Of a stretch of DNA of 64,000 nt, positions 1,170-26,302 are shown in pieces. Location: IMG/VR virus record IMGVR_UViG_3300028829_005735, positions 1-64,000 of that record; one strand, written 5' to 3'. The stretch's first letter is position 1; every line of letters begins with the position of its first letter. Made by a program: the position numbers and the translations under genes. Source of the stretch: a virus. The notes under the pieces are model-generated. The model was not told the DNA's origin. It did no database searches and saw only the letters and a program-made list of their open reading frames with translations.

Positions 1170-2495
1170 ATGAAAAAAAATACAGACCCACGTAAGATAT
1201 TCGAATGCCGTAAGGATGAGATTGATTACACGATGGACCAAAAGAAAGCTTTGCTATTGGTTGACACGTTCTTAAACTCTAAAGAATTATTCCTTTTAAT
1301 TGCAGGTAATGCAGGTACTGGTAAGACTACCATTGCTGAGAACATAGTTAACTATTGTAATGCTGACATTTTAGCTCCAACTAATGCTGCAGTTAAACGG
1401 CTCAGAGATAAGATGCAGTCAAAGCAAATACCTAAGACTCGTTTCTCTACCATCCATCAAATCTTATATGGTGCACCAGATCCTAATACAGGAGAGTTCA
1501 TTATGGCAGGAGGTTTAACAACGGCTCCTGTATACATAGTGGATGAGGCCTCTATGATTGACAGCACTATGCTTGAGGATTTAATGGATGAAGCAAAGAA
1601 AAGAAAGGCTAGGCTTATATTCTTAGGGGATGACTTCCAGCTGGAACCAGTAGGTAAAGACCCAAAGTTATTTGATTGGGAGAGTTCTTTCCCTGATGAC
1701 TTGAATGACAACTATAAGTTCAAGCTTAATGAGGTCCGGAGAAATGAAGGAGCTATCCTTGAGGTAGCAACACACCTACGTAATAACAAAGGTGTACAGA
1801 TTCTCAATAAGGACACTCAAGACTTTAAGCTTACACGTATATTCAGTAATGAGTTAGCTCTTGATATCCGTGACGATCGTAGCTTTGTTGTCCTAGTGTC
1901 TACCAATAGAACTCGTATGGCTTACAACAAGAAGATACGTCAGGCTAAATTCGAGGAAGATTGTGTAAACCTTGTCAATGATGGGGAGAAAGTAATCTCG
2001 GTTGCGAATACCGAGTACCTGAATGGTGAACATTATACCATGAGGTATCCTAAAATCATTAAGGAGTACGATAAGACAATCAACATTGGATCCAAACTAT
2101 ATCCTAAAAAGAAACGATACAAGTTCTACCTGATTGAACATGAGGTTGAAGGGTTCGACAAGACTTTCAAAACTTTATTGTTTCCGGAGCTTGACATCCC
2201 ATCACTACATAGTGGCCAGCTGATGAGTAACCGTGAAATCTTTATGGACGACAACTTATGTAAGTATCATAAGAAAATTGGCAGAAGGTTGTGGAAGAAG
2301 AACTTAAACATAGCTACGTATGGCTATGCTACGTCCACTCACAAGAGTCAAGGGAATGAATGGGATAATGTGTACATCGATGCCGATTGGCTGTCTGACA
2401 AATGGAATAAAGCACGTTGGATGTACACGGCTATCACAAGAGCTAAGAAAAAAGTGGAGATTAAATTCTCTAATCAATTTAAAGTAGTAGACTAA
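1170..2495 (+). CDS. SF1B Dda/RecD-like DNA helicase
   Basis: Walker A GNAGTGKT, APTNAA (Ia), Walker B IVDEASM, GDDFQLEPV (III), YATSTHKSQGNEW (V), YTAITRA (VI). Confidence 0.93.
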   Translation: MKKNTDPRKIFECRKDEIDYTMDQKKALLLVDTFLNSKELFLLIAGNAGTGKTTIAENIVNYCNADILAPTNAAVKRLRDKMQSKQIPKTRFSTIHQILYGAPDPNTGEFIMAGGLTTAPVYIVDEASMIDSTMLEDLMDEAKKRKARLIFLGDDFQLEPVGKDPKLFDWESSFPDDLNDNYKFKLNEVRRNEGAILEVATHLRNNKGVQILNKDTQDFKLTRIFSNELALDIRDDRSFVVLVSTNRTRMAYNKKIRQAKFEEDCVNLVNDGEKVISVANTEYLNGEHYTMRYPKIIKEYDKTINIGSKLYPKKKRYKFYLIEHEVEGFDKTFKTLLFPELDIPSLHSGQLMSNREIFMDDNLCKYHKKIGRRLWKKNLNIATYGYATSTHKSQGNEWDNVYIDADWLSDKWNKARWMYTAITRAKKKVEIKFSNQFKVVD

Positions 2496-3043
2496 TGGCA
2501 AATGATTGTTCCAACAACGTACAATTAGAGGGTACTGAAGCACAACTTCGGAACCTTAGTAAAGCTATTGCTAAGAGTATTGAGAAGATGATTCCTGGTG
2601 AAGGATTTAGATTTATACTTTCACCACCAAGCTATTCTATTGCTAAAGTGTTTGGAGATATTGTCCTTGAGGATAATTACTCCTTACACTTTATCACTAA
2701 ATGGTCAGCGGATCCAGTCCAGATGATACAGCTATGTAAACCTTTCGGTGTCAACTTTGTATATAGTTACGAAGAAGGGTCATACTATGGAGAGTTTCAG
2801 TACATTGCTGAAACAGATTTGTTAAGGGAGAGATCATTGTCTGAAGAACAATACCAATCATGTGTATTTTGTGGAGAATATGATGATGCTTATGGTGATC
2901 CAGTTTGTCCAAAAGGATGTGACGGAGGGGATGAATGCAACTCTAAGGAAAATAACTTCGAACAAATGAATAGAACCTTAGAGCTTTGTGAATGGAATGA
3001 TATGCATTTCGATTTAGAAACATGTGAATACCAAGATGTATGA
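2495..3043 (+). CDS. DUF1281/YubB ferredoxin-like-fold protein with Cys-rich C-terminus
   Basis: MANDCSNNVQLEG ~ MPNWCxNxLxIxG; FITKWSAD ~ FxTAWSPP; YEEG..YYG; CxxC..CxxxC..C tail. Confidence 0.6.
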   Translation: MANDCSNNVQLEGTEAQLRNLSKAIAKSIEKMIPGEGFRFILSPPSYSIAKVFGDIVLEDNYSLHFITKWSADPVQMIQLCKPFGVNFVYSYEEGSYYGEFQYIAETDLLRERSLSEEQYQSCVFCGEYDDAYGDPVCPKGCDGGDECNSKENNFEQMNRTLELCEWNDMHFDLETCEYQDV

Positions 3044-3438
3044 GTCAACAAGTACTAGCAATAACATTAATAAAAAAAGATGGGCAATTGGTTATGCCAA
3101 ATGCTTTAAGCAAGGAGAAGTATAAAATCTTTCTTGCATCTCTCTCCGATGGAGATAAAGTCGAAGCTCTATTCGAGTTGAAGACTGAAGATAATACCAA
3201 GGCACAACTAGCAAAGATACATGTATGTATTGCAGAAATAGCTAGTGAGCAAGGAGACGATAAGATTTCTGTTAAGCAGGAATTAAAACGTCGATGTGGT
3301 ATGGCTTACAAAGATGAGAATGGAAAAGAAAAGTTCCAGTCATTTGCTGGATGTTCTAAAGATGAACTATCAGATGCAATTGAGATACTAATACAGATGG
3401 GTAACTTTCTGAATATGAATCTCGATCCTATAGTGTAG
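3040..3438 (+). CDS. NinB/Orf-like recombination accessory protein (putative)
   Basis: TKAQLAKIHxxIxEIA..G...K..LK...SFAGCSKDELSDAIE resembles the NinB-family pattern. Confidence 0.5.
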   Translation: MSQQVLAITLIKKDGQLVMPNALSKEKYKIFLASLSDGDKVEALFELKTEDNTKAQLAKIHVCIAEIASEQGDDKISVKQELKRRCGMAYKDENGKEKFQSFAGCSKDELSDAIEILIQMGNFLNMNLDPIV

Positions 3439-3730
3439 GGCCTTCAGCTGCTGTTGCCTTAACGGTAACACCTTGAGCTTTAGCTTCTCTCTCAATTTGA
3501 GCAATCAATACAAACATCTGATAAAGCCTATGTTCTTTTAAGGATGTAATCTTATCATCACCGAGGTTGTCGAGTATCTTACCGACACTCTCCTTGTCCT
3601 CACCATCGAGTAGGACATTACTAAATACAGATTTCAGGTCACGATAAAACGCACCTGATACTTTTATATTAATGATGGCATCCTTCGGGACGGCATCGAA
3701 CTTTTTATCATCTAAATTTTTATCGCTCAT
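3428..3730 (-). CDS. small hypothetical protein, lone antisense gene in the + strand arm
   Basis: 100-aa natural-looking helical protein from the ATG at 3730 (MSDKNLDDKKF...); fills the otherwise empty 3438-3729 gap. Confidence 0.75.
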   Translation of the reverse strand: MSDKNLDDKKFDAVPKDAIINIKVSGAFYRDLKSVFSNVLLDGEDKESVGKILDNLGDDKITSLKEHRLYQMFVLIAQIEREAKAQGVTVKATAAEGPTL

Positions 3731-4376
3731 GAGTAACACTAAGAGAATCAAAGATACAATAAATAACCTTACTGCAAAGTATGATAAGACTTCTTGGAAA
3801 GACATCATCTCAGCTATGTTTCAAACTGAAGAGTTTGACTTAGCCTTAAACCAACTGATGAGTGATGTTCAAGCAGGTCAACCATTCACACCTCTAATCA
3901 AAAACATATTCAAGTCTTATGACTTATGTGCTTTGGAGGATGTGAAGGTTGTCATTGTAGGTAACCATCCACATCCCGACAAGGGAGTTGCTGATGGGTT
4001 AGCCTTCAGTGGATATGATAACCCTTTCGTGAAGGCATTAACATCTAGTCATAATGACTTGAAAGATTTACCTGCAGAAGGAGTACTGCTTTTAACGGCT
4101 GGACTTACCTGCCCAATAGGAAAGGCAACAGACCATATGCCTATGTGGGCTCCGTTAACCGAGAAGTTAATCAAAGCTATCTCATATAGAACTGTTAAGA
4201 CCATCTTCGTATTTGTAGGTAAGGAAACTGAACACCTTGGAAAGCAGGTGGGACGACAACATTTAAAGTTCTTTTTACCTGATGTAATAGAGGGTGAAGA
4301 ATGGGATCATGATGATGCGTTTGACAAGATAAATAAGGCTCTAAATAAGATGGAAAAAACACCAGTTAATTGGTGA
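3729..4376 (+). CDS. ung: uracil-DNA glycosylase family 1-like protein, catalytically degenerate
   Basis: VKVVIVG-NHPHP (vs GQDPYH), ADGLAFS, GVLLLT (vs GVLLLN), no HPSP, ends PVNW; likely start at ATG 3729. Confidence 0.85.
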   Translation: MSNTKRIKDTINNLTAKYDKTSWKDIISAMFQTEEFDLALNQLMSDVQAGQPFTPLIKNIFKSYDLCALEDVKVVIVGNHPHPDKGVADGLAFSGYDNPFVKALTSSHNDLKDLPAEGVLLLTAGLTCPIGKATDHMPMWAPLTEKLIKAISYRTVKTIFVFVGKETEHLGKQVGRQHLKFFLPDVIEGEEWDHDDAFDKINKALNKMEKTPVNW

Positions 4377-4414
4377 AAAATACCTACCTTAGTAGCCCTC
4401 GTTTTGGTTAGCCT

Positions 4415-5005
4415 ATGTTGAAACAAACTGCATTCTTTAACATCCTAGAAAAAAGAAAAGTTACTGTTACTCAGTACCATACTCTGTACCGTCTTAAGTT
4501 AAAACCTAAGATGTCATCTGCTATAATGAGCAAGATAAGAGTGTCGGTACCGTCAGTATATATCAACCTCAGTGATTGCACTTTGTCCGAGAAAGGATTG
4601 AAGTTAATCAAAGAAACTGAGGCTCTATTTAAGCCGGTGAAAAAGCTCACTAATATCGAATTACTTGGGCCCAATGCACAAGATAATGTAGACGCATACA
4701 TTGAGATGTTTCCCGGAATAAAATTACCAAATAATAAGTATGCTCGAGGCAACACAAAAGGGATCACTGAAAACTTCATGTGGTTCTTTCAAGAGTATGA
4801 CTTTGAGTGGGACACTATACTCCTTGCTACCGAAACATATGTTGAGGAATTCCGTCAAAAGAATTGGGAGTATATGAGAACAGCTATGTATTTCATCCGT
4901 AAGAACGACAAAGGAATTGAATCATCTGATTTAGCTACCTATTGTGAGCTTCTTAATACGGGGGGAGTAGAAGAAGAACGAACTATTAAATCCAACGTAG
5001 TATGA
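4415..5005 (+). CDS. hypothetical replication protein (possible wHTH helicase loader/initiator)
   Basis: 196-aa ORF coupled (ATGA) to DnaB; function inferred from position only. Confidence 0.6.
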   Translation: MLKQTAFFNILEKRKVTVTQYHTLYRLKLKPKMSSAIMSKIRVSVPSVYINLSDCTLSEKGLKLIKETEALFKPVKKLTNIELLGPNAQDNVDAYIEMFPGIKLPNNKYARGNTKGITENFMWFFQEYDFEWDTILLATETYVEEFRQKNWEYMRTAMYFIRKNDKGIESSDLATYCELLNTGGVEEERTIKSNVV

Positions 5006-6057
5006 GGTGGAAATCACACGCAAAGGCTTATGACGAAGCTTTAGTCTACATGAAAAAACGTCAGCAGGGATTGATCAAAAGTTTGATTACTCCATGGAAG
5101 AAGATTAATGATGCTGGTATTGATGGGTTCGAATGGAATTCAGTAGTTATTATAGCTGCTCGACCAGGTGGCGGTAAGACTCTAATGTTACAACAGCTTA
5201 CCCGTATGGCATTCAAGCTTAACAAGGGACAGAACATCCGTGTGTTAGACTTCCAGTTAGAAATGGTTGGACGTAACTCTAAGATACGTGAGTTCTCATC
5301 TGTCAGTAAGAAAAGCTACAAGTATTTATGTAGTGCTGAACGAGAAGGTTTGGTGATCGATGACGAATTGATTGCTAAATGTGCTCAGTATGCAAAGGCT
5401 GCTACTAAGTATCCAATCGACATCGTTGAGGATTCGGTTACTGCAGAGGAGTTTGAACTAGAGATACGCGAATACATGTCGTTTCATGCAACAAAGGATG
5501 CAGATGGTAAGATTACTGGATACAAGAAAACGATTGTAAGCCTTGACCATTCTGTATTATTAAAGAAGATGAAAGGACAGTCAACTATCGACAAGCTTAA
5601 TGCTTTAGGTGAGGCTGTTACACGGCTGAAGAAAAGGTTTCCAATAGTGTTTATTATCTTATCACAATTGAACAGAGAGATAACAACTCCAGCCAGATGT
5701 GAGAATGGCAAGTACGGAAACTACCCTAACTCCAATGATATCTTTGGAGGTGATGCATTGAATCAACATGCTGATATGCTTATAGTGTTGGACCGTCCAG
5801 CACTTCGACACATAACTGAATACGGACCTGATAGATTTATTGTTGAGGACGATTCGTTACTCGCAGCTCATGTATTAAAGACACGTACTGGAGATACTCG
5901 TATGAGTTTCTTTGAGGCACGGTTTCATGAGATGTCTATTGTTGATGCACCTGTACCACCTCAAGCAAAAAAGCCTGGTAAACGTGGAGCTAAAGCTACA
6001 CCTGCACCAGTGCCTACCAATAATGGTGGTGGGCAAACTAAATTATCAACTAAATAA
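5002..6057 (+). CDS. dnaB: DnaB-like replicative helicase (C-terminal ATPase domain only)
   Basis: AARPGGGKT Walker A, FQLEM, LDH, LSQLNR, DIFGGDALNQHAD, KTRTG. Confidence 0.93.
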   Translation: MRWKSHAKAYDEALVYMKKRQQGLIKSLITPWKKINDAGIDGFEWNSVVIIAARPGGGKTLMLQQLTRMAFKLNKGQNIRVLDFQLEMVGRNSKIREFSSVSKKSYKYLCSAEREGLVIDDELIAKCAQYAKAATKYPIDIVEDSVTAEEFELEIREYMSFHATKDADGKITGYKKTIVSLDHSVLLKKMKGQSTIDKLNALGEAVTRLKKRFPIVFIILSQLNREITTPARCENGKYGNYPNSNDIFGGDALNQHADMLIVLDRPALRHITEYGPDRFIVEDDSLLAAHVLKTRTGDTRMSFFEARFHEMSIVDAPVPPQAKKPGKRGAKATPAPVPTNNGGGQTKLSTK

Positions 6058-6575
6058 TGGGACTATCTACAAAAGGTAGCAATGTTGGACTCACTAAGAA
6101 GGACAAGATTGCTGAACTAAAAAAGAAACATCAGGAAATATTCGACAAATTAGGTATAGTCGATCCACATTACATCCCGAAGATGTTCTTCGGAACACCG
6201 TTATCAATGCCACTATTTAAGAGTGAGCTTAAGGATGGAAAGGATGTCTATACCGAAAAAGTTAGTAAGTCTTTCGTGTCAGAGGATGAAACGAGAACTT
6301 TATATAAATGGAAACACAATCCTAATTGGGCCAGAGATTACCCAACTAAACCACTCAGTCATGGTGAAGGTCATATGTATTTGATACCCTTCACAGAACT
6401 AGAGGCAATAGTTGAGAAAAAGAAAGAGCCTGATTATGATTTTGGAATAACAGATCCTGATGAAATTCAGGACTTACCGATAGATCAATTGACTATTCGG
6501 GATTTGGCTGCAATTCTTACAGGAAAGCCCGTAAGTTTGAAACCGTGGCTTAATGAAATAATGAAAAAAGAATAA
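6057..6575 (+). CDS. conserved phage hypothetical protein
   Basis: 172-aa ORF, TAATG-coupled on both sides. Confidence 0.8.
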   Translation: MGLSTKGSNVGLTKKDKIAELKKKHQEIFDKLGIVDPHYIPKMFFGTPLSMPLFKSELKDGKDVYTEKVSKSFVSEDETRTLYKWKHNPNWARDYPTKPLSHGEGHMYLIPFTELEAIVEKKKEPDYDFGITDPDEIQDLPIDQLTIRDLAAILTGKPVSLKPWLNEIMKKE

Positions 6576-7435
6576 TGGCAGAAATTAATCTACCCATGCA
6601 GCCCCGACCGGCTGTAATTAAGACTCCGAACAGGGCTCTTATATTTTCGAAACCAAAGGTAGGTAAGACACTCACAGTGAGTAAGCTTCCTAATTGTTTA
6701 ATGCTTGACTTCGAAGGAGGTACTCTAGCTATTGAGGCTATGGCATATCCGGTTAAGAAAGTTTCAGATATCAATGCTATATGCAAGGCTATCAAGGAGG
6801 CTGACTTTCCGTATGATTACATAGCTATCGATACAGCCTCGGCTCTTGAGGAGATGTGTATACCTGTTGCCGAAAGACAATGGGCTAAATCTCCTGACGG
6901 TAAGGAATGGTTCCTTGCTGACTCTAAGGATAACACGAAGCTCCATCCAGAATCTGGTAAGGCTAAGTACGGGAGTGTAATGAACTTGCCTTACGGTAAG
7001 GGATATGCGTTGGTGGCAGATGTTTTTAACAGTGTCATCGATAAGCTACAGAAGTGTGCACCAAAGCTAATCATCTTGGCTCACAGTACGTATGCTACAA
7101 TAAGCAAGAAGGACGGTTCGGAATTCACAGCACTTGATATTCAAATGTCAAAGAAGTGTAAGTTTGCTGCAACATTTAAGGCTGATGCCATAGGGTACAT
7201 GTACCGAGAAGGCAAGCAAAACTTTATCAACTTCACGGCATCGGAAGATGTGGGTGCAGGTGGACGACACCGATACTTAGAGAAAGAACACATCCTTATC
7301 AGCGAGTACATCGAAGGAGAGGATGGAGAAGACGAAAAGTTCGTTACATATTGGGATAAGATTTTTTCCCCTAAGAATGAAAAATCAACAAAGAAAAAAA
7401 TAACAAAGAAAAAAGAAGAAAAAAAAGAAGAGTAA
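6575..7435 (+). CDS. AAA_24 / Sak4-like ssDNA-annealing ATPase
   Basis: SKPKVGKT Walker A, LDFEGG, IAIDTAS, ILAHS, ADAIGY; lies directly before SSB. Confidence 0.85.
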   Translation: MAEINLPMQPRPAVIKTPNRALIFSKPKVGKTLTVSKLPNCLMLDFEGGTLAIEAMAYPVKKVSDINAICKAIKEADFPYDYIAIDTASALEEMCIPVAERQWAKSPDGKEWFLADSKDNTKLHPESGKAKYGSVMNLPYGKGYALVADVFNSVIDKLQKCAPKLIILAHSTYATISKKDGSEFTALDIQMSKKCKFAATFKADAIGYMYREGKQNFINFTASEDVGAGGRHRYLEKEHILISEYIEGEDGEDEKFVTYWDKIFSPKNEKSTKKKITKKKEEKKEE

Positions 7436-8259: not shown

Positions 8260-9279
8260 ATGGGCTTAAGCACACAAGTTTTTACCACAGATACTTTCCC
8301 TGTACCAAATGAATGGATATTCGAAAATTTCTTGAATCTCGATGAGAAGTTGGAAGGACAATCAGTATCAATAAAATCAGTATTCAATAAGAAAGACACT
8401 AACCCCTCTATGATAATCTACCTACATGAAAACGGTAGGTATAAGTTCAACGATTATTCTGCTGGAATAAAAGGTGATGCTATTGATTTCATACAGGAGT
8501 ATTACAATCTTCAGACTAGGCAAGATGCTTTTAGAAAAGTATACTACCTATGGAAGGATGGAGACTATGACACCATTGAACGACGTAAGTTAACGAAGAC
8601 TACCTATAAGGTTGTTGATGTTGAGGTGCGTGCATGGAATATGGATGACGCAAAATATTGGATGTCATTCCATATCGGTTCAAAAGATTTAGAAAAGCAT
8701 TGTGTTAAACCACTAGCATCATACACCTTTGAGAAGACTCAAGGAGATGACGTTACTCATGTGGTATTCAACAAGCCATTTTGCTACGGATATTTTAGAA
8801 AGGATGGTACGTTGTATAAGATTTACAATCCGAAGGATAAGCGTACAAAGTTTATTAAGATTGTTAACTATATACAAGGGCATGACCAGTTGGAATATAA
8901 AGCTAGATGGTTAATCATATTAGCGTCATTAAAAGACCTCATGGCATTTAAGAAATTAGGTTTCCCTAATGTCGAATGCATAGCTCCTAATAGTGAGAAT
9001 GATATGATCACAACCAAGCAATTGAAATACTATCGTAAACGATACCCGTTTATATCTACTCTATTTGACAATGATTCTGCAGGTAAGAAGGCTTCCCGTA
9101 AATATAAGGAGGAGTATGGAATACCTTACACAGAGTTTGATGTCGAGAAAGATGTTGCCGATTGCAACAGAGAACATGGACTAACGAATACCAAACTATT
9201 TTTAAAACCACACTTGCTAGAAACATATGCTAGAAAAAATAGAAAAACTAATAACAACAAACGAAGTAGAAAATCATAA
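8260..9279 (+). CDS. dnaG: DNA primase (DnaG/Toprim, crAss-type)
   Basis: Cys-less CHC2-like N-terminus (DTNPSM..FNDYSAG..GDAIDF), Toprim LFDNDSAG, KDVAD. Confidence 0.85.
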   Translation: MGLSTQVFTTDTFPVPNEWIFENFLNLDEKLEGQSVSIKSVFNKKDTNPSMIIYLHENGRYKFNDYSAGIKGDAIDFIQEYYNLQTRQDAFRKVYYLWKDGDYDTIERRKLTKTTYKVVDVEVRAWNMDDAKYWMSFHIGSKDLEKHCVKPLASYTFEKTQGDDVTHVVFNKPFCYGYFRKDGTLYKIYNPKDKRTKFIKIVNYIQGHDQLEYKARWLIILASLKDLMAFKKLGFPNVECIAPNSENDMITTKQLKYYRKRYPFISTLFDNDSAGKKASRKYKEEYGIPYTEFDVEKDVADCNREHGLTNTKLFLKPHLLETYARKNRKTNNNKRSRKS

Positions 9280-12182: not shown

Positions 12183-12697
12183 TGAGAGAAAAAAGAATAT
12201 TAAAATCTACCGATTACGATCGGTTAAAGAAAATGATTAATGGCACAGACGAAGATCTGAATTTAGTTATAAGTCTCATCGATACTTGTAATATAGAGGA
12301 ATCGTTTCGTTATATATTGTGTTTAATTCCACAGCGTTGGAATACCAAGTACGTAATGAGTAGTCAATTGATGGTAAGTCCAAGGCTATATGCCTACGTT
12401 TACGACCTTGTTGGTGGAGCTAAAGGTATCCCTACAGAAGTTACATTAGATTTTATGATGGAACTCTGGGCATTACATTCAGAAAAACATAACTTGCAAC
12501 CTTCGGCACGAGTAATTAAATCAATTTGTACCGAGTATAGGGTAAACGAAAATAGTACCGACGACAGAAAGGTAAGAGGTATGTTTGACAGAGGAGCTAT
12601 AGATGCACAAAAAAGAGCAGCTGCAGCACAAGCAAAAGCATCAAAAGCAAAGAGTACCAAAAAGTTTGGTAACGATCCATTTAAGAATCTAAAATGA
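12182..12697 (+). CDS. hypothetical helical protein (YDRLKKMINGTDEDLNLV motif)
   Basis: 171-aa ORF; N-terminus resembles that of 9227..9655. Confidence 0.75.
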   Translation: MREKRILKSTDYDRLKKMINGTDEDLNLVISLIDTCNIEESFRYILCLIPQRWNTKYVMSSQLMVSPRLYAYVYDLVGGAKGIPTEVTLDFMMELWALHSEKHNLQPSARVIKSICTEYRVNENSTDDRKVRGMFDRGAIDAQKRAAAAQAKASKAKSTKKFGNDPFKNLK

Positions 12698-13767
12698 CAA
12701 ATAAATTATCAACAGACATCGGAGTAGATGCTGTATCCAAAGAAGAGTTTCAAAAAGAAAAGTTCTACTTCAGCTTCAGTTCATTAGTGAAGTTATTGTT
12801 AGATCCTAAAGTCTTTTACAATGACTATGTGTTACGTCAACGTAAAGATATAAGTGCAAAGCACCTTGATATCGGACAGCTATTGCATTGTCTTGTGCTT
12901 GAACCTGAGAACTTCGACGATAATTTCGTTGTAATGCCTGGGAAAATACCAACTCCTTCAGCTAAAGCTGTAATAGACGACTTGTGGAGGCTGCATGGTA
13001 GACCGGCAATGCTTGATGGTCAAGTCAACAATCCTGTCATGGGACAATTCAAAGATGAGATTATAGAACTGTTAAAGAAGGCAGAGCTATATCAAAATCT
13101 AGTAGACGCTAAACGTGCGGATAAGAATGGCAACACTCTTACTGGTGATGAAAAACGTTTAGAAAAGATTATCACAATAGAGAATAAAAAGTATTGGGAT
13201 GTATTGATATTAGGGGAGAAGAAAACCATTGTCGATTTAGATATGGTTCAAAAGGCTGACGTAAAAGCAAAGGCAATACTTGCCTCTAAGAAGGCTCTAC
13301 CTTATATTACTTCCGATACCATCAAAAAAGATATTCGGAAAGAGATGGAGCTTAAATGCGACCTGCCCGGATATGATTTCGGTCTTAAAGGAATCATCGA
13401 TTGCGTTTTAGTTGACAACGAGAACGAAACAATCTATGTAACCGACTTGAAGACCACCTCAAAAGATATGAGAGATTGGTTAAAAGATTTCCCAACATCT
13501 GAATATATGTATTGGTTGCAAGCAATCATATACAAACAGTTAATTATGTCGTTGGTTCCAGAGAATAGTAAACGTGCATGGAAATTAGTGTTCACTTTCC
13601 TTGTGATCGATGGAAACGATAAAGTTTATCCGTTCAATGTATCTGCTGACTCCCTTAGAGAATGGGAGATTAAGGCTAAAGATAAGTTTGACGAGGCTAA
13701 ATGGCATTACGAGGAGCACAACTATGATTTACCAATGGCCTACGAACTCGGGCTTGTAGAATTGTAA
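12694..13767 (+). CDS. PD-(D/E)xK exonuclease (RecE/Exo VIII-like)
   Basis: SFSSL, GQLLHCLVLEP, LKGIID, DLKTT, YWLQAIIY. Confidence 0.88.
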   Translation: MTNKLSTDIGVDAVSKEEFQKEKFYFSFSSLVKLLLDPKVFYNDYVLRQRKDISAKHLDIGQLLHCLVLEPENFDDNFVVMPGKIPTPSAKAVIDDLWRLHGRPAMLDGQVNNPVMGQFKDEIIELLKKAELYQNLVDAKRADKNGNTLTGDEKRLEKIITIENKKYWDVLILGEKKTIVDLDMVQKADVKAKAILASKKALPYITSDTIKKDIRKEMELKCDLPGYDFGLKGIIDCVLVDNENETIYVTDLKTTSKDMRDWLKDFPTSEYMYWLQAIIYKQLIMSLVPENSKRAWKLVFTFLVIDGNDKVYPFNVSADSLREWEIKAKDKFDEAKWHYEEHNYDLPMAYELGLVEL

Positions 13768-14311: not shown

Positions 14312-14344
14312 AAAGGGTATTGAGAAATCGATACCCTTTTTTTT
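14312..14344 (+). terminator. intrinsic terminator
   Basis: AAAGGGTATTGA-GAAA-TCGATACCCTTT plus T-run. Confidence 0.88.
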
Positions 14345-14358
14345 ATCTCTTATTGTTT

Positions 14359-16419
14359 ATGAAGAAGACCAGAGTGTATGACTATGAGACAATTAAAAAC
14401 TGTTTCTTAGCCATGTACATAAACATTAAGGATCCCAAAGACATTGTAGAATTTGAGGTATCCGATTTCAAAAATGAATTCAAGGAGTACCTTTTATTCC
14501 AGCAGAAACTTATCAAAAGTAAACAGTACATTGTATCATTCAATGGACTACAATTTGATTCACAAGTTGCTGTATTTTGTATTAAGAATCGAAGCCGTCT
14601 ACTAAGATTAACCGGTGGAGAAATTGCCCGTGAAATATTTAAGTTCGTTCAGGAATTACTTGAACTTAAGAACGAGAAAGGCTGGATGAAATATCCTGTA
14701 GCCGACTTACCATTTAATGAGATTGACCTAGCTGCTATTAACAATTACAATAACAAGCAGAAGTTTGCCTCATTAAAATGGTTACAATATAACATGGACT
14801 GGCACAATATCATGGATATGAATTGTAAGCCAGAAGACATCCTTACTCAGGAACAAATCAAGGACCTACGAAAATATTGTATTAACGATTGTATGTCTAC
14901 TCGTGCACTACTTGCTCTGAACACCCAGCTTATACATGTACGTGATGATTTATCTGAACACTTTAAGTTAGACCTGCAGAACCTGTCGGAACCAAAACTT
15001 GTTAAAGCTATCCTTATGGATTTACTTAGCAAAGATATGGGGATTAGTAGACGGGAACTCAAGGACAAACGTACCTATAGGAGGGTAATACCTTTGCAAG
15101 ATGCTATCCTACCGTATATTAAATTCAAGACTCGACCTCTACAGAAAACACTCAATACTTTTAAAGGATTGGAGTTGGATGGGGAGAACTTAAAAGGTAG
15201 CTTCAAACATAAAGTGACCTACCGGGGATTAGAATTTTCATTTGCCCTTGGTGGAATCCATGGTGCCAAGCGAGGATTGTATAAGCAAGGAAAGGGAATG
15301 ATTGTTAAGTCATTCGATGTTAAGTCCTACTATCCAAACTTATGTATTAGAAATGGATGGAGTCCTGCTCACCTGCCGTCAGAAATATTCTGCGAAAGAT
15401 ACGAGTGGTTCTACAACGAGAGGTTAAAGTACCCTAAGAGTAATCCTCTCAACTATCTGTATAAAATTGTACTTAATTCAGCATTTGGATTAAGTAATGA
15501 TCAACACTCATTCCTAAAGGATGGATTGCTCACAATGCAAATCACCTGTAATGGACAATTGTTATTGGTACAACTCATGGAAGAATTGTGTGAGCAGATA
15601 CCAGGAGCACGACCAGTAATGGTAAACACAGATGGTGGTGAAATAATATTCCCGGAAGAGTATGAAGATCTATACAATGAGATTTGTGCTAAATGGGAGA
15701 AGATGACAAACCTTGTGCTTGAATACGAGCATTATGAAAAGCTTATCATATGGGATGTAAATAATTACATTGGAATCTTCCGAGGCTACGAGATAGATTT
15801 TGAAGAGGCAAAAAAGTTATTCCATAGTGAGTATCCAAAGCCTTTAATAAAGAAGGTGGACGGTAAGTATTATCACTATCCTGTTAAATGTAAAGGACGA
15901 TTTGATGTCAACAAGGAGCTCCATAAAAATAAGAGTTTCCGTGTGAAGGCAATTGCTATATACAATCATTTTGTACACGGCATGAAACCAGAACGATCGA
16001 TTGAGAAGTGTACAAACATCTATGATTTTTGTGCAGGTATCCGAGCAAAAGGGGATTGGAAAATAAAACAAACTTGTGTTGAAGACGGGACGTTATATAA
16101 CAATGACACCCAAAAAACAGTACGTTATTTTGTATCCGGGAAGGGATGTAAACTAATCAAGGAAGAAAGAAAGATAGCAACCGAAGATGTTGAGATTGTA
16201 AATGCCAAAGGTAAAATTACAAAGTCTTACAAGAAGGGTGACCTATTAATAAAGACCGAGAAAGTTGAAGCTTCAGCAGTACTGGAACAAGTTGCAATTG
16301 AAATCGATGACAATAAAGATTTCAAAGATTACAATATCAATAAGCAGTTCTACATGAATTTAATTCGAAAGGAAATTGAATCGGTTGAACCTATTTATTC
16401 ACAAACAACATTACTTTAA
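14359..16419 (+). CDS. polB: family B DNA polymerase with 3'-5' exonuclease
   Basis: ExoI YDYET, ExoII FNGLQFD, ExoIII YCIND; motif A FDVKSYYP, B KIVLNSAFG, C NTDG; start moved to ATG 14359 past the terminator. Confidence 0.93.
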   Translation: MKKTRVYDYETIKNCFLAMYINIKDPKDIVEFEVSDFKNEFKEYLLFQQKLIKSKQYIVSFNGLQFDSQVAVFCIKNRSRLLRLTGGEIAREIFKFVQELLELKNEKGWMKYPVADLPFNEIDLAAINNYNNKQKFASLKWLQYNMDWHNIMDMNCKPEDILTQEQIKDLRKYCINDCMSTRALLALNTQLIHVRDDLSEHFKLDLQNLSEPKLVKAILMDLLSKDMGISRRELKDKRTYRRVIPLQDAILPYIKFKTRPLQKTLNTFKGLELDGENLKGSFKHKVTYRGLEFSFALGGIHGAKRGLYKQGKGMIVKSFDVKSYYPNLCIRNGWSPAHLPSEIFCERYEWFYNERLKYPKSNPLNYLYKIVLNSAFGLSNDQHSFLKDGLLTMQITCNGQLLLVQLMEELCEQIPGARPVMVNTDGGEIIFPEEYEDLYNEICAKWEKMTNLVLEYEHYEKLIIWDVNNYIGIFRGYEIDFEEAKKLFHSEYPKPLIKKVDGKYYHYPVKCKGRFDVNKELHKNKSFRVKAIAIYNHFVHGMKPERSIEKCTNIYDFCAGIRAKGDWKIKQTCVEDGTLYNNDTQKTVRYFVSGKGCKLIKEERKIATEDVEIVNAKGKITKSYKKGDLLIKTEKVEASAVLEQVAIEIDDNKDFKDYNINKQFYMNLIRKEIESVEPIYSQTTLL

Positions 16420-19032: not shown

Positions 19033-19225
19033 AATAAAATACGATGTAATATCCCCAGATGGATTCTCTATCAGCAGGGATGAAATATGGGACAGTCCTG
19101 AAGAAGCTCACCTAGCTCTTACCATATGGATGGAGCGATATGAAAAACAAGGTTACTATAGCTCAAATCAAGGAAGGATTCCTATTAATGAATTGGAATC
19201 AAGATGTACAATCAAAACTATTTAA
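19025..19225 (+). CDS. hypothetical protein
   Basis: 66-aa ORF (YDVISPDGFSI...WxxRYEKQGYYSS). Confidence 0.7.
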   Translation: MAKIKYDVISPDGFSISRDEIWDSPEEAHLALTIWMERYEKQGYYSSNQGRIPINELESRCTIKTI

Positions 19226-19226
19226 A

Positions 19227-20223
19227 ATGAATCAAGCAGAAAGTATTGAACTATTCTTTCAAGAAGGAAGTTCTGATAAAGTCTATCAGGCAGAGTTAAA
19301 ACAAGAAGGTGACGGATGGGTTGTCAACTTTGCATACGGCAGGAGAGGAAACACTCTCACTACAGGATGTAAGACATGTGATCCACTTCCCTATGAGAAG
19401 GCTAAGAAATCCTACGATTCTTTAGTGAAATCAAAAACAGCCAAGGGTTATAAACCTAATGGTGTATCTGGTACAATTAATACTGTAGCTGATGATAAAG
19501 AAGACTTAGGTATTCGACCTCAGTTACTCAATGAGCTTACTGAAAAAGAAGCAGTAGCTTATATCAATGATTCTGAATACTGCATGCAAGAAAAGTATGA
19601 CGGTAAACGTAGAGGAATTGAGGTAACTCCAAATGCAGGAAACCCTGTCATAAGAGGTGCTAATAAAAAAGGATTTGAAGTTGCGTTAACCAATGAAGTG
19701 ATTGGTGCGTGTGCTAAAATTCCATTCCCTCAAATCCTTGACGGTGAAGACATGGGAGATAGGATTATGATATTCGATGACATCCGTGCAGGAGAACTTC
19801 CGTACATGGATAGATATATCATTATCAAAGCACACCTAAAAGATAATCCAATCTTACAAGTTGTTGAAACGGCTTGGACTACTGAGGAGAAACGTGAGAT
19901 GTACAATCGTCTTAAAAGTGAGAGAGCTGAAGGAGTTGTGTTCAAGAATATGAATGCAACATATACACCAGGAAGGCCTGCCTCGGGAGGTGACCAATTC
20001 AAATGTAAGTTCTATGATGAAGCTTCATGTATGGTAGCCTCAGTTAGTGATGTAAAAATATCCTAACTCACCTAAAGTTGAAGTAGGTGACATAGTGGAG
20101 ATAAAGTATCTTTACTACAATGAAGGAGGTTCATTGTATCAACCGGTACTGAAAGAAGTACGGGATGATGTCGATGCCGATGAATGTACATTGGCTAAAC
20201 TCAAGAGAAAGAAAGATGAATAA
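19227..20223 (+). pseudogene. WGR-domain ATP-dependent DNA ligase, frameshifted (N-part 19227-20066; OB C-terminus in +1 frame 20059-20223)
   Basis: WGR (EGSSDKVY, YGRRG), motif I EKYDG, LDGE, EGVVFK, KCKF; the +1 frame continues YPNSPKVEVGDIVEIKYLYYNEGGSLYQPVLKEVRDD. Confidence 0.8.
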
Positions 20224-21279: not shown

Positions 21280-21501
21280 ATGAAATCAGCATCTGAACTT
21301 TACGAAGAGTGGGCAAAAACATTTCCTATATGGTGGGATTACTATTGTAGCAACCTGCAATTCAAATACCCACACACAAGAGTAACTCCTCATAGCCCTC
21401 ACAGTTTTGAAGATTTCAAAACCAAGAGGCATATACAGACGGGAATGTTATTAATTGACGATTGGGTCTGGAGATGGCCCGAAAGATTTGAAAACTTATG
21501 A
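21280..21501 (+). CDS. hypothetical Trp-rich protein
   Basis: 73-aa ORF, ATGA-coupled to the next gene. Confidence 0.6.
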   Translation: MKSASELYEEWAKTFPIWWDYYCSNLQFKYPHTRVTPHSPHSFEDFKTKRHIQTGMLLIDDWVWRWPERFENL

Positions 21502-22361
21502 CAACAGTAAATAGCTTATCAGGAGGCAAGACCTCATCCTACTTAGCAGTACATTACCCGGCAGACATTGAAATGTTTGCTGTGGTATGTATTGATGACC
21601 ACAATGCTAACGGAGGATATTGGAGAAAAAATAAGAAACTCTTACAAAGGGTTCAAGATAAATTGGAGAAGACATCTCCTCACTGGCCAGAATTTTTGGC
21701 AACGGCAGAGGATCCACAAACATTGATTACAATGCTTGAGCTTGAACAGATGACAGGTCGTGAAATTACTTGGGTACGTGGTGTAGGTTTTGAAAGTCTC
21801 ATCCAAGAAGTTAAACGTTGTCTACCTAACATCTCTATGAGATGGTGTACAGAGTTTATGAAAATCATTCCTATGTTCGAACATATTTATATGTACCACG
21901 AGCTTCCTATAGACATGAGAATAGGATTTAGGTATGATGAAGCTGAACGTGCAGAAGATTTAGCAACTACAATCAGTTTCCCTATTAGTTGTAACAACTA
22001 TGGTACAGGGCAACAGAAGTGGGTACATGACTTTGAGTACAGAACTCTATCCTATCCTCTCATAAAAGATAAGATAATGCGTCCTATGGTAAATAAATTT
22101 TGGGATAAACATCCAGAGGTATCATTCCCTGAAGATACAGGTTGTCAAATCTGTTTTTGGAAACATCCTCAACAAATTAAATTAAACTATGAACGTCCGG
22201 AATCTAAATCTATTATTGAATGGGCAAACATCATGGAAGTTATGATGGGTAATCGATTCAAGAAAGAGATATCTATGGCAGCTGCTAGAGATATAGGAGT
22301 TCAAATGGATTTCTTTGGTGGAACAGGACCAGGTTGTAAAGCAGGAATATGTGGTATATAA
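21498..22361 (+). CDS. PAPS-reductase-like (PP-loop/HUP) Fe-S protein
   Basis: SLSGGKTS PP-loop, RWCT, IGFRYDE, YPLI, GCQICF, C-terminal GCKAGICG. Confidence 0.8.
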   Translation: MTTVNSLSGGKTSSYLAVHYPADIEMFAVVCIDDHNANGGYWRKNKKLLQRVQDKLEKTSPHWPEFLATAEDPQTLITMLELEQMTGREITWVRGVGFESLIQEVKRCLPNISMRWCTEFMKIIPMFEHIYMYHELPIDMRIGFRYDEAERAEDLATTISFPISCNNYGTGQQKWVHDFEYRTLSYPLIKDKIMRPMVNKFWDKHPEVSFPEDTGCQICFWKHPQQIKLNYERPESKSIIEWANIMEVMMGNRFKKEISMAAARDIGVQMDFFGGTGPGCKAGICGI

Positions 22362-22457
22362 TAGGATGGCTACTCTTATGGGGATTTTGTCACCTGATCT
22401 ACAAAGGTCAGAAGGCAAACCTCAAAAGAGAAAGCGAGGCTAATGAAAAAATAGCTT

Positions 22458-23318
22458 ATGATAAAATGCGTAACACGAAAAAGTTTCAAAATAAGAGAAT
22501 CCGGAAGGAGTAGTGATTACATTGCTCCTTCTTTTGGGTATGGCTGTTTATTTAACTGCAGCTATTGCTATATGAAAAGGCATAAACCTACAGGTTTAGA
22601 TTATGCTACAAATATTGAGCAAATACTTACAGAGATAAATTCTCATGTAGCTTTTGCAGATGTAAGCAAGCCTAATCAAACTCACAAAGAATTCATAACA
22701 TACGACATCAGTTGTAATGAAGACTTTGCTTTGCATAGCAAGTATTATAATTGGGAAAAGATATTCGACTTCTTTAAACACCATGATAAAGCAATGGCTA
22801 CACTTGCAACAAAGCATGTTCCAAAAAACTTTCTAAACTATAACGCTAATAAAAAAGTTCGTATAAGATTTAGCTTAATGCCCGAAAGATTAAGACAATT
22901 AGTGGAACCAAACACTTCATCTATTTTAAATCGTATTCAAGCAATTAATGACTTTATAGGATCAGGTTATGATGTTCATATAAACTTTTCCCCTGTAATT
23001 GTATACGAAGGTTGGCTGGATGATTATCAAGAACTGTTTGCATTAATCAATAGTATAGTAAAAGCCGAGTATAAAACACAAGTATTAGCTGAAGTCATAT
23101 TTCTCACTCACAACAGAAAAAAGCATGAATATAATTTAGCTAATAATATACCAGGAGAAAGTTTACTTTGGAATTTAAAAATTCAAGAAGATAAAGTATC
23201 TTCATATGGAGGTTCTAACCTCAGATACAAGCATCCTATTAAAAAAGGTTACATAGAAAAATGGACTAAACTCCATGACTCTATTATCCCTTGGAATAGC
23301 ATAAGATATATATTTTAA
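22458..23318 (+). CDS. splB: spore photoproduct lyase-like radical SAM protein
   Basis: GCLFNCSYCYM CxxxCxxC, DISCNED, ATK, RIRFSLMP, HINFSPVI, EVIFLTHN, LRYK. Confidence 0.85.
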   Translation: MIKCVTRKSFKIRESGRSSDYIAPSFGYGCLFNCSYCYMKRHKPTGLDYATNIEQILTEINSHVAFADVSKPNQTHKEFITYDISCNEDFALHSKYYNWEKIFDFFKHHDKAMATLATKHVPKNFLNYNANKKVRIRFSLMPERLRQLVEPNTSSILNRIQAINDFIGSGYDVHINFSPVIVYEGWLDDYQELFALINSIVKAEYKTQVLAEVIFLTHNRKKHEYNLANNIPGESLLWNLKIQEDKVSSYGGSNLRYKHPIKKGYIEKWTKLHDSIIPWNSIRYIF

Positions 23319-23935: not shown

Positions 23936-24181
23936 ATGATAAAAGACGAATTAGCAAATCCCACCGTAGAAGAACAACCTACAATGCAAGCCCCACCACC
24001 AATTGTATCGGGAGGGCTTACAAAATACGAACACTTTCTAGGTCTTGCGTTTCAAGGTGTAATAGCCTCACAACCAAGAGCTGGATATATTGAGCCTCGG
24101 AAAGCTGCAGAGATGGCAATGCAGTACACCGATGAATTATTTAATGCCGTCAATCATTTACCGATGCAATCAAATGGATAA
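23936..24181 (+). CDS. phage small protein of the GLT(K/L)RxxFAxxAMQG family
   Basis: GLTKYEHFLGLAFQGVIAS...AAEMAMQYTDEL. Confidence 0.65.
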   Translation: MIKDELANPTVEEQPTMQAPPPIVSGGLTKYEHFLGLAFQGVIASQPRAGYIEPRKAAEMAMQYTDELFNAVNHLPMQSNG

Positions 24182-24788
24182 AGAAACATGGAGAGCCGTA
24201 GTTGGATACGAAGGGCTTTATGAAGTGTCATCCTATGGAAAATTAAAAAGATTGGCAGGATACTCTAAACGAATACGGTATTCAAAAACAAAAGGTCATA
24301 GATTTAAAGATGATGAAATTTATCATCCTGAAATTATATTTAAACTACACCTAAGCAAAAAAGGTTATGTGAAAGGTCAACTGTTTAAGCATGACGGAGA
24401 ACGAATGAAACAAAAAGCTATAGTACTACATAGACTTGTAGCAGAAGCTTTTATTGGTTCGGCACCAGAAGGTAAGCCTCAAGTGAATCACATAGATGGT
24501 GTAAAGACTAATAACTATTACAAAAATCTTGAATGGTGTAGTAATGCAGAAAATCAACGTCATGCTATTGCTATGGGATTAGTTCCCGATAGACCAAAAG
24601 GTTACGACAATCACCAAAGCAAAGAGATTAATCAAATTGATTTAGCTACGGGAAAAGTAATCAAGTCATTCGGCTCACTTGCCGAAGCGGAAAGAATCAC
24701 AGGTATACATCGACCTAATATTAAAAAGGTGTGCCAAAATAAACGATTGTCTGCAGGGGGGTACTCGTGGGAGTACGTAAACAAGTAG
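24174..24788 (+). CDS. free-standing NUMOD4-HNH-NUMOD1 homing endonuclease
   Basis: ETWRAVVGYEGLYEVSSYG (NUMOD4), HRLVAEAF..VNHIDGVKTNN..NLEW (HNH), FGSLAEAERITG (NUMOD1). Confidence 0.92.
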   Translation: MDKETWRAVVGYEGLYEVSSYGKLKRLAGYSKRIRYSKTKGHRFKDDEIYHPEIIFKLHLSKKGYVKGQLFKHDGERMKQKAIVLHRLVAEAFIGSAPEGKPQVNHIDGVKTNNYYKNLEWCSNAENQRHAIAMGLVPDRPKGYDNHQSKEINQIDLATGKVIKSFGSLAEAERITGIHRPNIKKVCQNKRLSAGGYSWEYVNK

Positions 24789-25861: not shown

Positions 25862-26302
25862 ATGATTTTAATCGACATAAAAAAATTACACTGTATAGCC
25901 GGAACTTCCGACAAATTGTACATTGTAAGACTATACGAAAATCCACAAACAAGAGCGTATGAAGTACACTCTGAATATGGTAGACGAGGACGGGCTATGA
26001 CTGTTAATCCACCGAAAGTATACACTAAGGTAAATCAGGCACGTACTCAATTTACCAGCATTTGTAATAGTAAAATGCGAAAGAATTACCAAGATATTAC
26101 TCAACCGGGTGATATGGAAAGCAGGTTCAATAAAGCTTATGTTAAGCAACTGGAAACCGAAGCTGCTGTTTTATGTGCTGAAGGTTCACTAGAACGTAAA
26201 CAGTATACGACCATAAAAGGTATGTTAGCATCTGGAGATGAACCATCTCAAATATTAGCCGAGGAGATGATCAAAGCTAAAAACGAAAAACTAGCAGCAT
26301 GA
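25862..26302 (+). CDS. WGR-domain protein with C-terminal helical module
   Basis: AGTSDKLY, YGRRG, K.RKNY; C-terminal YTTIKGMLASGDEPSQILAEEM. Confidence 0.8.
   Translation: MILIDIKKLHCIAGTSDKLYIVRLYENPQTRAYEVHSEYGRRGRAMTVNPPKVYTKVNQARTQFTSICNSKMRKNYQDITQPGDMESRFNKAYVKQLETEAAVLCAEGSLERKQYTTIKGMLASGDEPSQILAEEMIKAKNEKLAA

Follow-up and report, generated by a model that had tools for sequence, protein, structure and literature searches.

The stretch of DNA analyzed here (the window) comprises positions 1 to 64,000 of the IMG/VR virus record IMGVR_UViG_3300028829_005735. It carries a gene, P0001, whose product retains the fold and sequence scaffold of a family-1 uracil-DNA glycosylase (UDG) and has lost the catalytic residues and the DNA-gripping loops of this enzyme. 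The same losses mark a whole clade of relatives, in which the gene occupies the slot of a canonical, active-looking UDG, is maintained by purifying selection, and shows a shift in the sites under constraint. From these observations we infer a place in the replisome, and any partner within it: P0001 probably (about 0.55) serves phage replication without catalysis, as a structural or accessory component of the machinery.

A family-1 UDG fold without its catalytic and DNA-gripping elements

The open reading frame (ORF) of P0001 is uninterrupted. Twenty-four database relatives were found at 26 to 76% identity by BLASTP, and because the full-length ones begin at or near the same Met (MSNT...), the gene start was placed at position 3729 and not at the in-frame upstream ATG at position 3672. 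In phmmer searches of the PDB sequences, P0001 matched E. coli Ung with an E-value of 5.2e-14 and human UNG with an E-value of approximately 4e-9, and its matches to the poxvirus D4/E4 chains were marginal (0.045 to 0.5). The Pfam UDG profile (PF03167) gave 22.5 bits, slightly below its cut-off of 24.3 bits, and the best PHROG was phrog_12143 ("unknown function"; E-value, 1.2e-27). An AlphaFold2 (AF2) model built from a 150-row alignment had a mean predicted local distance difference test (pLDDT) score of 96.8 and a predicted template-modeling (TM) score of 0.92. The top ranks of a Foldseek search with this model were occupied by the E. coli, S. aureus, human, and viral UNGs, with E-values down to 3.7e-16 and TM scores of 0.76 to 0.82. 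These results place P0001 in the family-1 UDGs by both homology and fold, with the Pfam score slightly under its threshold. The initial annotation, which had been made from the sequence alone, described a full-length ORF with a family-1 UDG scaffold; this description holds, and the four scaffold motifs that it named (VKVVIVG, ADGLAFS, GVLLL, and the terminal PVNW) were all found.

In the UNG family, the Asp and Tyr of motif A, the Asn of the uracil-recognition strand, the His of motif B, and the Pro-rich, Gly-Ser, and Leu-intercalation loops are the catalytic and DNA-pinching elements. Their counterparts in P0001 were mapped by a HMMER alignment to E. coli Ung, with the chain numbering of the latter. 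Motif A of E. coli Ung, G62-Q-D64-P-Y66-H67 (GQDPYH), was aligned to G78-N-H80-P-H82-P83 of P0001. The water-activating Asp is therefore absent and His80 stands in its place, and the thymine-excluding Tyr is likewise absent, with His82 instead. The uracil-recognition strand GVLLLN123 of E. coli Ung was aligned to GVLLLT123. The uracil-reading Asn is Thr in P0001 and 10 close relatives; this Thr is restricted to the subclade of the window (11 of the 33 clade rows in a 172-row alignment), and the Asn is kept in the other 22 clade rows.

Neither the Pro-rich loop nor the Gly-Ser loop of the family-1 enzyme was found in its DNA-pinching form. P0001 showed 16 gap columns across the Pro-rich loop, and the Ser and Leu columns of the GLAFS-GVLLL segment that are conserved in canonical relatives are either gaps or variable in the clade. 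In the Gly-Ser loop, Gly164 is retained, and the next residue, Ser in the enzyme, is Lys in P0001 and variable in the clade. The catalytic His of motif B (HPSPLS) and the Leu-intercalation loop are also absent, and no His occurs between K180 and W192. The register of motif B is ambiguous: HMMER, using the chain of an H187D mutant, set D185 at the position of His187, and the 172-row MAFFT alignment set L183 there with a 3-residue gap. No register brings back a His in P0001. The presence of H187 active-site variants among the titles of the PDB matches agrees with the catalytic role of this His. The changes that the initial annotation had reported, namely GQDPYH to GNHPHP (loss of Asp and Tyr), GVLLLN to GVLLLT (loss of Asn), HPSP to LPDV (loss of His and the intercalation loop), and the missing PPSL loop, were all reproduced in the alignments, the loss of His in either register. 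On this pattern of residues, P0001 is predicted to be no longer able to excise uracil by the family-1 mechanism, and we think that it neither cuts nor grips DNA in the manner of UNG.

The clade, the selection on it, and its genomic slot

A motif table was prepared from the MAFFT alignment of 172 relatives. The same pattern of loss was observed in P0001, P0003 to P0023, P0027 to P0038, and some fragments: no Asp, no His, a short motif B (KFFxP), and a deleted Pro-rich loop, with the Asn mostly kept. In a FastTree phylogeny of 160 rows, the window protein fell within a group of 38 rows with 99% local support, and 37 of these lacked both the Asp and the His, the sole exception being a fragment. 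In a quick IQ-TREE phylogeny of 100 rows, the 16 sampled clade members were grouped with 99% support in the Shimodaira-Hasegawa-like approximate likelihood ratio test. Since the same substitutions and deletions mark the whole clade, their occurrence is far beyond chance.

The constraint on individual sites differed between the 33 clade members and 64 canonical relatives. The canonical relatives show no variation at the Asp, Tyr, and His. In the clade, in contrast, the Asp and Tyr columns had entropies of 2.79 and 2.84 bits, only the Pro between them was kept, and the His column was a gap. The Asp position in the clade is filled by at least 10 residues (H, N, Y, T, F, L, C, A, K, and V). Conservation is confined to the clade at 12 positions (D46, S63, D65, L66, F100, L114, P129, F160, F162, E168, K180, and F182), and P55, G90, F93, G118, V119, T127, H136, W140, G164, P184, F198, N202, and W215 are conserved in both sets. 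The clade proteins are also slightly more acidic, with a median isoelectric point (pI) of 5.9 compared with 7.1 in the canonical relatives.

Selection was examined at 13 clade loci, 1 from viral contigs and 12 from metagenomes. The ORF is intact in all of them, down to approximately 48% identity; one, L060, ends at a contig edge. The ratio of nonsynonymous to synonymous substitution rates (dN/dS) was calculated by the Nei-Gojobori method, and more distant pairs, which were synonymously saturated, were excluded. The values for the window against L049, L051, and L053 were 0.142, 0.114, and 0.148 (dS, 1.1 to 1.3), and those among these three loci were 0.195, 0.141, and 0.089 (dS, 0.49 to 1.08). 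When the same calculation was applied to the neighboring genes of the window and L053, similar values were obtained for most of them (Table 1). It is therefore apparent that the UDG-like gene is under purifying selection like that on the neighboring replication genes. Near-identical phage DNA was also present in independent sediment metagenomes of 2024 (runs X3 and X4). In the UDG-like gene, X3 differed from the window at two nucleotides, both at third codon positions and synonymous (Pro83 and Tyr96), and X4 was identical across the portion covered.

The gene order SF1 helicase, p2495, p3040, a minus-strand gene, UDG-like gene, p4415, DnaB, p6057, Sak4-like ATPase, p7439, and primase, onward to the polymerase, is common to the window and the longer clade loci. 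The earlier statement that the UDG-like gene lies inside a replisome operon is thus correct, with the SF1 helicase, DnaB, Sak4, primase, exonuclease, and polymerase genes all nearby. Among 90 loci outside the clade, 73 encode a UDG in which the Asp, Tyr, Asn, and His-Pro are all present. Homologues of the flanking genes p3040 and p4415 were found at 37 of the 73 canonical-UDG loci, and homologues of p4415 and DnaB at 46; many of the remaining loci are short contigs. Because the canonical UDG gene occupies the same slot between p3040 and p4415-DnaB, P0001 is its positional orthologue and descends from a canonical, active-looking UDG.

Table 1. Features of the window, with dN/dS (window versus L053) where calculated
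Feature	Position	Strand	dN/dS	Remarks
Dda-like SF1 helicase	1170-2495		0.10	
p2495			0.42	Fast
p3040, 132 aa	3040..3438	+	0.095	Upstream neighbor; flanks UDG in dead and canonical loci
Divergent acidic protein gene, 100 aa, pI 5.3	3428..3730	-	0.106	Context; not shown as a partner
P0001, UDG-fold pseudo-enzyme gene	3729..4376	+	0.144	215 aa, uninterrupted ORF
Motif A remnant (G78 N H80 P H82 P83)	3960..3977	+		Catalytic Asp to His; thymine-excluding Tyr to His
Shortened GLAFS-to-GVLLL segment	4008..4079	+		16 residues shorter than in E. coli Ung; Pro-rich DNA-binding loop gone
GVLLLT uracil-recognition strand	4080..4097	+		Asn to Thr123
Motif B/Leu-intercalation loop remnant (K180 FFLPDV)	4266..4286	+		Without His; shortened
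p4415, 196 aa	4415..5005	+	0.127	Downstream neighbor; overlaps the start of DnaB
DnaB-like replicative helicase	5002..6057	+	0.069	phrog_19, E 3.1e-23
p6057			0.13	
Sak4-like ATPase	6575-7435		0.062	
p7439			0.10	
Primase	8260-9279		0.071	
p9227			0.27	Fast
PD-(D/E)XK exonuclease	12694-13767			
DNA polymerase (PolB-like)	14359..16419	+		phrog_1252, E 5.8e-119
p16419, 566 aa	16419..18119	+		Begins on the last base of the polymerase gene, overlapping its stop codon
WGR-domain protein	19140-20066	+		Fused to an ATP-dependent DNA ligase domain
PAPS-reductase-like gene and adjoining radical-SAM SPL-like gene	21498-23318	+		phrog_424, E 2.6e-14; PF20903, E 1.2e-23
HNH+NUMOD4 homing-endonuclease-like gene	24090-24788			
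WGR-domain protein	25862-26302	+		
Large ORFs	27371-63033	-		1918, 3500, 1573, 1195, 673, 1009, and 1671 aa; more than half of the window

The gene at 3428-3730 is the single minus-strand gene within the plus-strand replication operon. It stands head-to-head with the UDG-like gene, and since the two start codons overlap in CATG (3728-3731), there is no intergenic space for promoters. By tblastn, a homologue was found at 13 of the 13 clade loci and at none of the 90 others. The canonical-UDG loci carry, at the corresponding place and in the same orientation, diverged acidic ORFs of 100 to 160 aa that can be aligned with the 3428-3730 protein. The gene, whose product the initial annotation had considered as a possible partner, is therefore not peculiar to loci with the dead form. 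The idea that this gene was newly gained with the inactivation of the UDG, for example as a Ugi-like inhibitor, was rejected because of these counterparts beside canonical UDGs. Its AF2 model was mostly helical (pLDDT, 75) and had no fold match in the PDB (best E-value, 1.6).

As for the other neighbors, p4415 had no Pfam or PHROG match. Since relatives of the polymerase have 686 aa, its start was set at the ATG at 14359, though the longest ORF begins at a TTG at 14320. The polymerase had no Pfam match, its profile had no match among the PDB sequences, and a protein atlas gave a weak lead to PF00136 (21% of one cluster); we take it to be a family-B enzyme from the PHROG name and its sequence motifs. 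The following protein, p16419, had no Pfam, PHROG, or PDB sequence match, and the protein atlas gave a lead to DUF932 (score, 0.93; structural TM score, 0.45 to 0.48 by query). Homologues of its N-terminal 245 residues are encoded after the polymerase in L063 and L067 and near a canonical UDG in L046; p16419 is a candidate for an accessory protein of the polymerase. The canonical UDG gene of other lineages lies immediately upstream of the polymerase gene (L080) or one to two small genes after the homologue of the p16419 N-terminal region (L046, L063, and L067). These gene orders connect the UDG gene with the polymerase module in a general way, which is no proof of contact. The PAPS-reductase-like and radical-SAM genes may be DNA repair or modification genes.

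The record from which the window was taken is a 72-kb fragment with an estimated completeness of approximately 60%. A replication and early block on the plus strand (1-27 kb) is followed by giant minus-strand ORFs of up to 3500 aa. Four ORFs of this large region that were tested (323, 673, 1009, and 1195 aa) had no PHROG match. Tail-fibre-like genes lie beyond the end of the window, and the 72-kb record has no head genes. In tblastn searches, matches were obtained to crAss001, cr108_1, cr111_1, and phi14:2 with E-values of 1e-15 to 6e-10, members of the Crassvirales were among the relatives of both the UDG and the polymerase, and related contigs came from marine, estuarine, and sediment samples. 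Based on these relatives and the giant ORFs, the phage is read as a marine crAss-like phage. Positions 1170-6057 of the window were also detected in metagenomes of other studies and years: one marine sediment run of 2024 contained 88% of the sampled words and another contained 59%. Three metatranscriptomic runs contained 5 to 7% of the sampled words. Short identical contigs in the two of these that were examined fell on the SF1 helicase, p2495, and DnaB genes and none on the UDG-like gene; because DNA carry-over is possible, these fragments say nothing on transcription.

A proposed non-catalytic role in replication and its alternatives

The course of events that best fits these results may be as follows. 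The ancestor of P0001 would have been an active-looking UDG in the same replication-module slot of related marine crAss-like phages. Replacement of the water-activating Asp, the leaving-group-stabilizing His, the Tyr, and, in this subclade, the Asn would have abolished the chemistry, and the deletion, change, or shortening of the Pro-rich loop, the Ser of the Gly-Ser loop, and the Leu loop would have abolished the "pinch-push-pull" on DNA. After catalysis had been lost, the gene would have been retained by a purifying selection comparable to that on the neighboring replication genes. The conserved UDG core would then serve as a protein-binding platform, and it would be this binding function that selection maintains. 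The poxvirus D4/E4 proteins and the herpesvirus UNGs use the UDG core as such a platform in addition to catalysis, and a similar use has been proposed for the inactive UDG domain of N4-like polymerases. The place of the gene, its evolution at a rate with the replication genes, and these precedents all point to an accessory role in the replisome.

A more general form of this reading, which we put forward only tentatively, is that in crAss-like phages and the marine phages related to them, the "UDG" primarily has a structural function as a replisome subunit and is the equivalent, in bacterial viruses, of D4 and herpesvirus UNG; excision would be optional and would have been dropped once here and perhaps repeatedly elsewhere. 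If this is true, nature has provided in the dead clade a separation-of-function mutant in which the non-catalytic role can be seen on its own. Repeated loss of catalysis across the wider family is suggested by the phylogenies and, if true, would favor a general non-catalytic role. The Asp was missing from 93 of the 160 FastTree rows, 29 of which had Glu, in a sample biased toward the best matches to a dead query. Parsimony gave 13 changes of the Asp on the 100-row tree, and the well-supported branches force only 2 (for the group of rows that keep both Asp and His).

Several points weigh against a non-catalytic role in the replisome or its generality. UDG families 2 and 5 function without an Asp at the motif-A position, so the loss of the Asp alone is no proof of inactivity; the argument for inactivity is built on the joint loss of all of the elements and on the variability of the replacement residues. 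With the DNA-contact loops lost and the pI below that of the canonical relatives, a D4-like role in DNA scanning is less likely than pure protein bridging, as far as DNA binding can be predicted from sequence. The UDG-like proteins of the window and L053 share 72% identity, compared with 92% for DnaB and 85% for the primase. Repeated independent loss of the Asp is no more than suggested, and an approximately unbiased test did not reject a single split between Asp-less and Asp-bearing sequences (p = 0.087). What is said here of the partner and the activity of P0001 we infer from sequence. Complex prediction for the polymerase (64-row alignment) with P0001 (32-row alignment) scored 0.00 in both runs and counts neither way.

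The residues that remain in the pocket might mean that P0001 has remained a DNA glycosylase, or an enzyme that binds bases, with an altered specificity, acting through other residues and maybe on a damaged or modified base. MUG/TDG and the family-5 UDGs function without the Asp. Of the 33 clade rows, 91% still have the Phe that stacks on uracil (F93) and two thirds (22) the Asn of GVLLLN, and H136 and W140, which lie near the pocket, do not vary. However, the range of residues at the Asp position includes no conserved polar replacement, which indicates that no catalytic residue has been conserved at this site. Canonical UDGs conserve H136 and W140 to the same degree, which marks these two as core residues and not a new active site, and all three DNA-pinching elements are deleted or changed. 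This explanation is unlikely, and so is one based on the phage DNA, which was also offered in the initial annotation: the DNA would contain uracil or a uracil-like pyrimidine, and the UDG would have been disarmed and kept as a non-cleaving reader or as a shield against the host UDG. No dUTPase, ThyX, or ThyA-family gene was found in two clade records (G000 and G001), PAPS-reductase-like and radical-SAM SPL-like genes occur in the same early region, and passages of one study link UDG-PolA fusions to T-modified phage genomes (PMC13697223). On the other hand, G000 and G001 are each only approximately 60% complete, and dUTPase was also absent from 5 of 5 canonical-UDG records, two of which are 97 to 99% complete, so the missing nucleotide genes are uninformative. 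No hydroxymethylase, dUMP/dCMP-modifying enzyme, or Ugi-like gene was recognized, and the loss of the DNA-binding loops speaks against a reader or shield. The proposal found no support, as the absence of dUTPase does not track the death of the UDG. A search of the 72-kb record with PF03167 revealed no second, active UDG; this search also missed the divergent gene of the window itself, and the record is incomplete.

It is quite unlikely that P0001 acts outside the replisome as a decoy or anti-defence protein that sequesters a host UDG-binding factor, for example the SSB tail, an inhibitor directed at UDG, or a sensor of a defence system. Its conserved surface does differ from the canonical one at the 12 clade-specific positions, and UDGs are often targeted by small protein inhibitors (Ugi, p56, and SAUGI complexes were among the PDB matches). 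Counter-defence genes typically lie in variable regions, whereas the ancestral slot in the replication operon is kept at all 13 clade loci; the selection pattern also matches that of the replication neighbors. The gene also evolves faster than the core replication enzymes, and in the window copy a further loop deletion is present and position 113, a Tyr in at least 90% of the clade, is Asp, as might be seen in a pseudogene in waiting that is still open by chance. Nevertheless, the ORF is intact at 13 of 13 loci with dN/dS of 0.09 to 0.20, its AF2 model is highly confident, and samples collected years apart differ only synonymously. These selection data exclude simple decay; relaxed selection and frameshifts in close relatives, by which the initial annotation would have recognized it, were not observed. 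The same data bear out one half of the earlier notion of a repurposed pseudo-enzyme, an intact UDG fold that lacks its catalytic apparatus and is kept by selection; its other half, the service as an accessory factor of the polymerase or helicase, is taken up here in the broader form of a probable replication subunit.

Comparison with known UDG-fold proteins

Annotations of crAss-like phages uniformly treat UDG as an enzyme, and it is listed as a recurrent gene of nucleotide metabolism or repair. UDG is counted among the crAss-like genes by Yutin et al. 2021 (PMC7886860) and by a Great Barrier Reef study (PMC13558084), in the available portions of both papers without comment on its residues. 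As a whole clade keeps the fold under selection without the chemistry, automatic "uracil-DNA glycosylase" labels would be wrong for these phages. In a full-text literature search, which did not extend to supplements, no publication was found that describes a phage family-1 UDG as inactive and encoded by a gene of its own, and the nearest published cases, as far as the available parts of the sources go, are the fused family-4 domains of N4-like polymerases. It was known already that a UDG fold can be kept in a viral replicase without catalysis; new here are the membership in family 1, the encoding in trans, the setting of a crAss-related phage with a PolB-like polymerase, and the additional loss of the DNA-binding loops. 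These findings suggest a possible repair-independent role in replication for the UDGs of phages, as for those of poxviruses and herpesviruses.

P0001 resembles canonical UNG over its full length in fold (TM score, approximately 0.8) and with significant sequence similarity. The shared core consists of FTP/YPP, GLAFS with the stacking Phe, GVLLL, His-x3-Trp, and the C-terminal F...N...W. It differs in that the Asp, Tyr, His, and, in this subclade, Asn are replaced or deleted and three loops are lost or changed. By homology and by synteny with replication genes, P0001 belongs with the UDGs of the Crassvirales replication module. The canonical UDGs of crAss001 (gp74) and Flavobacterium phage Fpv1 are homologous to it and likewise lie in the replication module, and in the nearer marine relatives with canonical UDGs, the order p3040, UDG, p4415, DnaB is the same as in the window. 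The UDGs of the crAss001/Fpv1 type keep GQDPYP, GV(L/F)(M/L)(I/L)N, and HP, whereas the clade of the window does not.

Among proteins that contribute to replication without catalysis, vaccinia D4 acts in the polymerase holoenzyme via A20 independently of catalysis, as described in parts of PMC1936997, PMC4450493, and PMC3946371. The initial annotation had invoked this role as established, and passages of the first two of these papers back it. D4 and E4 are similar to P0001 in being viral UDGs of the family-1 fold in a genome with its own PolB-like polymerase. In contrast to P0001, D4 retains its catalytic residues and activity and binds DNA, according to passages of PMC4450493, and no A20-like bridging protein was recognized in the phage of the window. 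E. coli Ung is also engaged by a replication protein, docking on the C-terminal tail of SSB according to the title of PDB entry 3uf7.

The polymerase PolA of N4-like phages carries a family-4 UDG domain in which catalytic residues are replaced or deleted and which has been proposed to be a processivity module (passages of PMC10201439 and PMC13697223). P0001 resembles this domain, as described there, in being a phage UDG-fold module with replaced or deleted catalytic residues; the N4-like domain is kept within the replicase, and P0001 probably belongs to the replication machinery. The N4-like module is of family 4 and fused in cis to PolA, whereas that of the window is of family 1 and a separate gene in a phage with a PolB-like polymerase. 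P0001 is not an N4-like UDG-PolA fusion: it is a 215-aa gene approximately 10 kb upstream of the polymerase, and its best matches are family-1 UNGs.

The comparison closest to a cultured system is with Cellulophaga phage phi14:2, a marine member of the Crassvirales. In its g042 (L105, 950-1660), which carries a UDG annotation, the catalytic Asp is replaced by Glu and the catalytic His by Asp. This gene product differs from P0001 in lying outside the clade of the window in both trees, in keeping the Asn, and in lacking the short motif B (KFFxP). The phage could thus be a tractable model for non-canonical phage UDGs, and together, the dead clade and this homologue offer a direct route to a possible partner and to a test of the proposed role.

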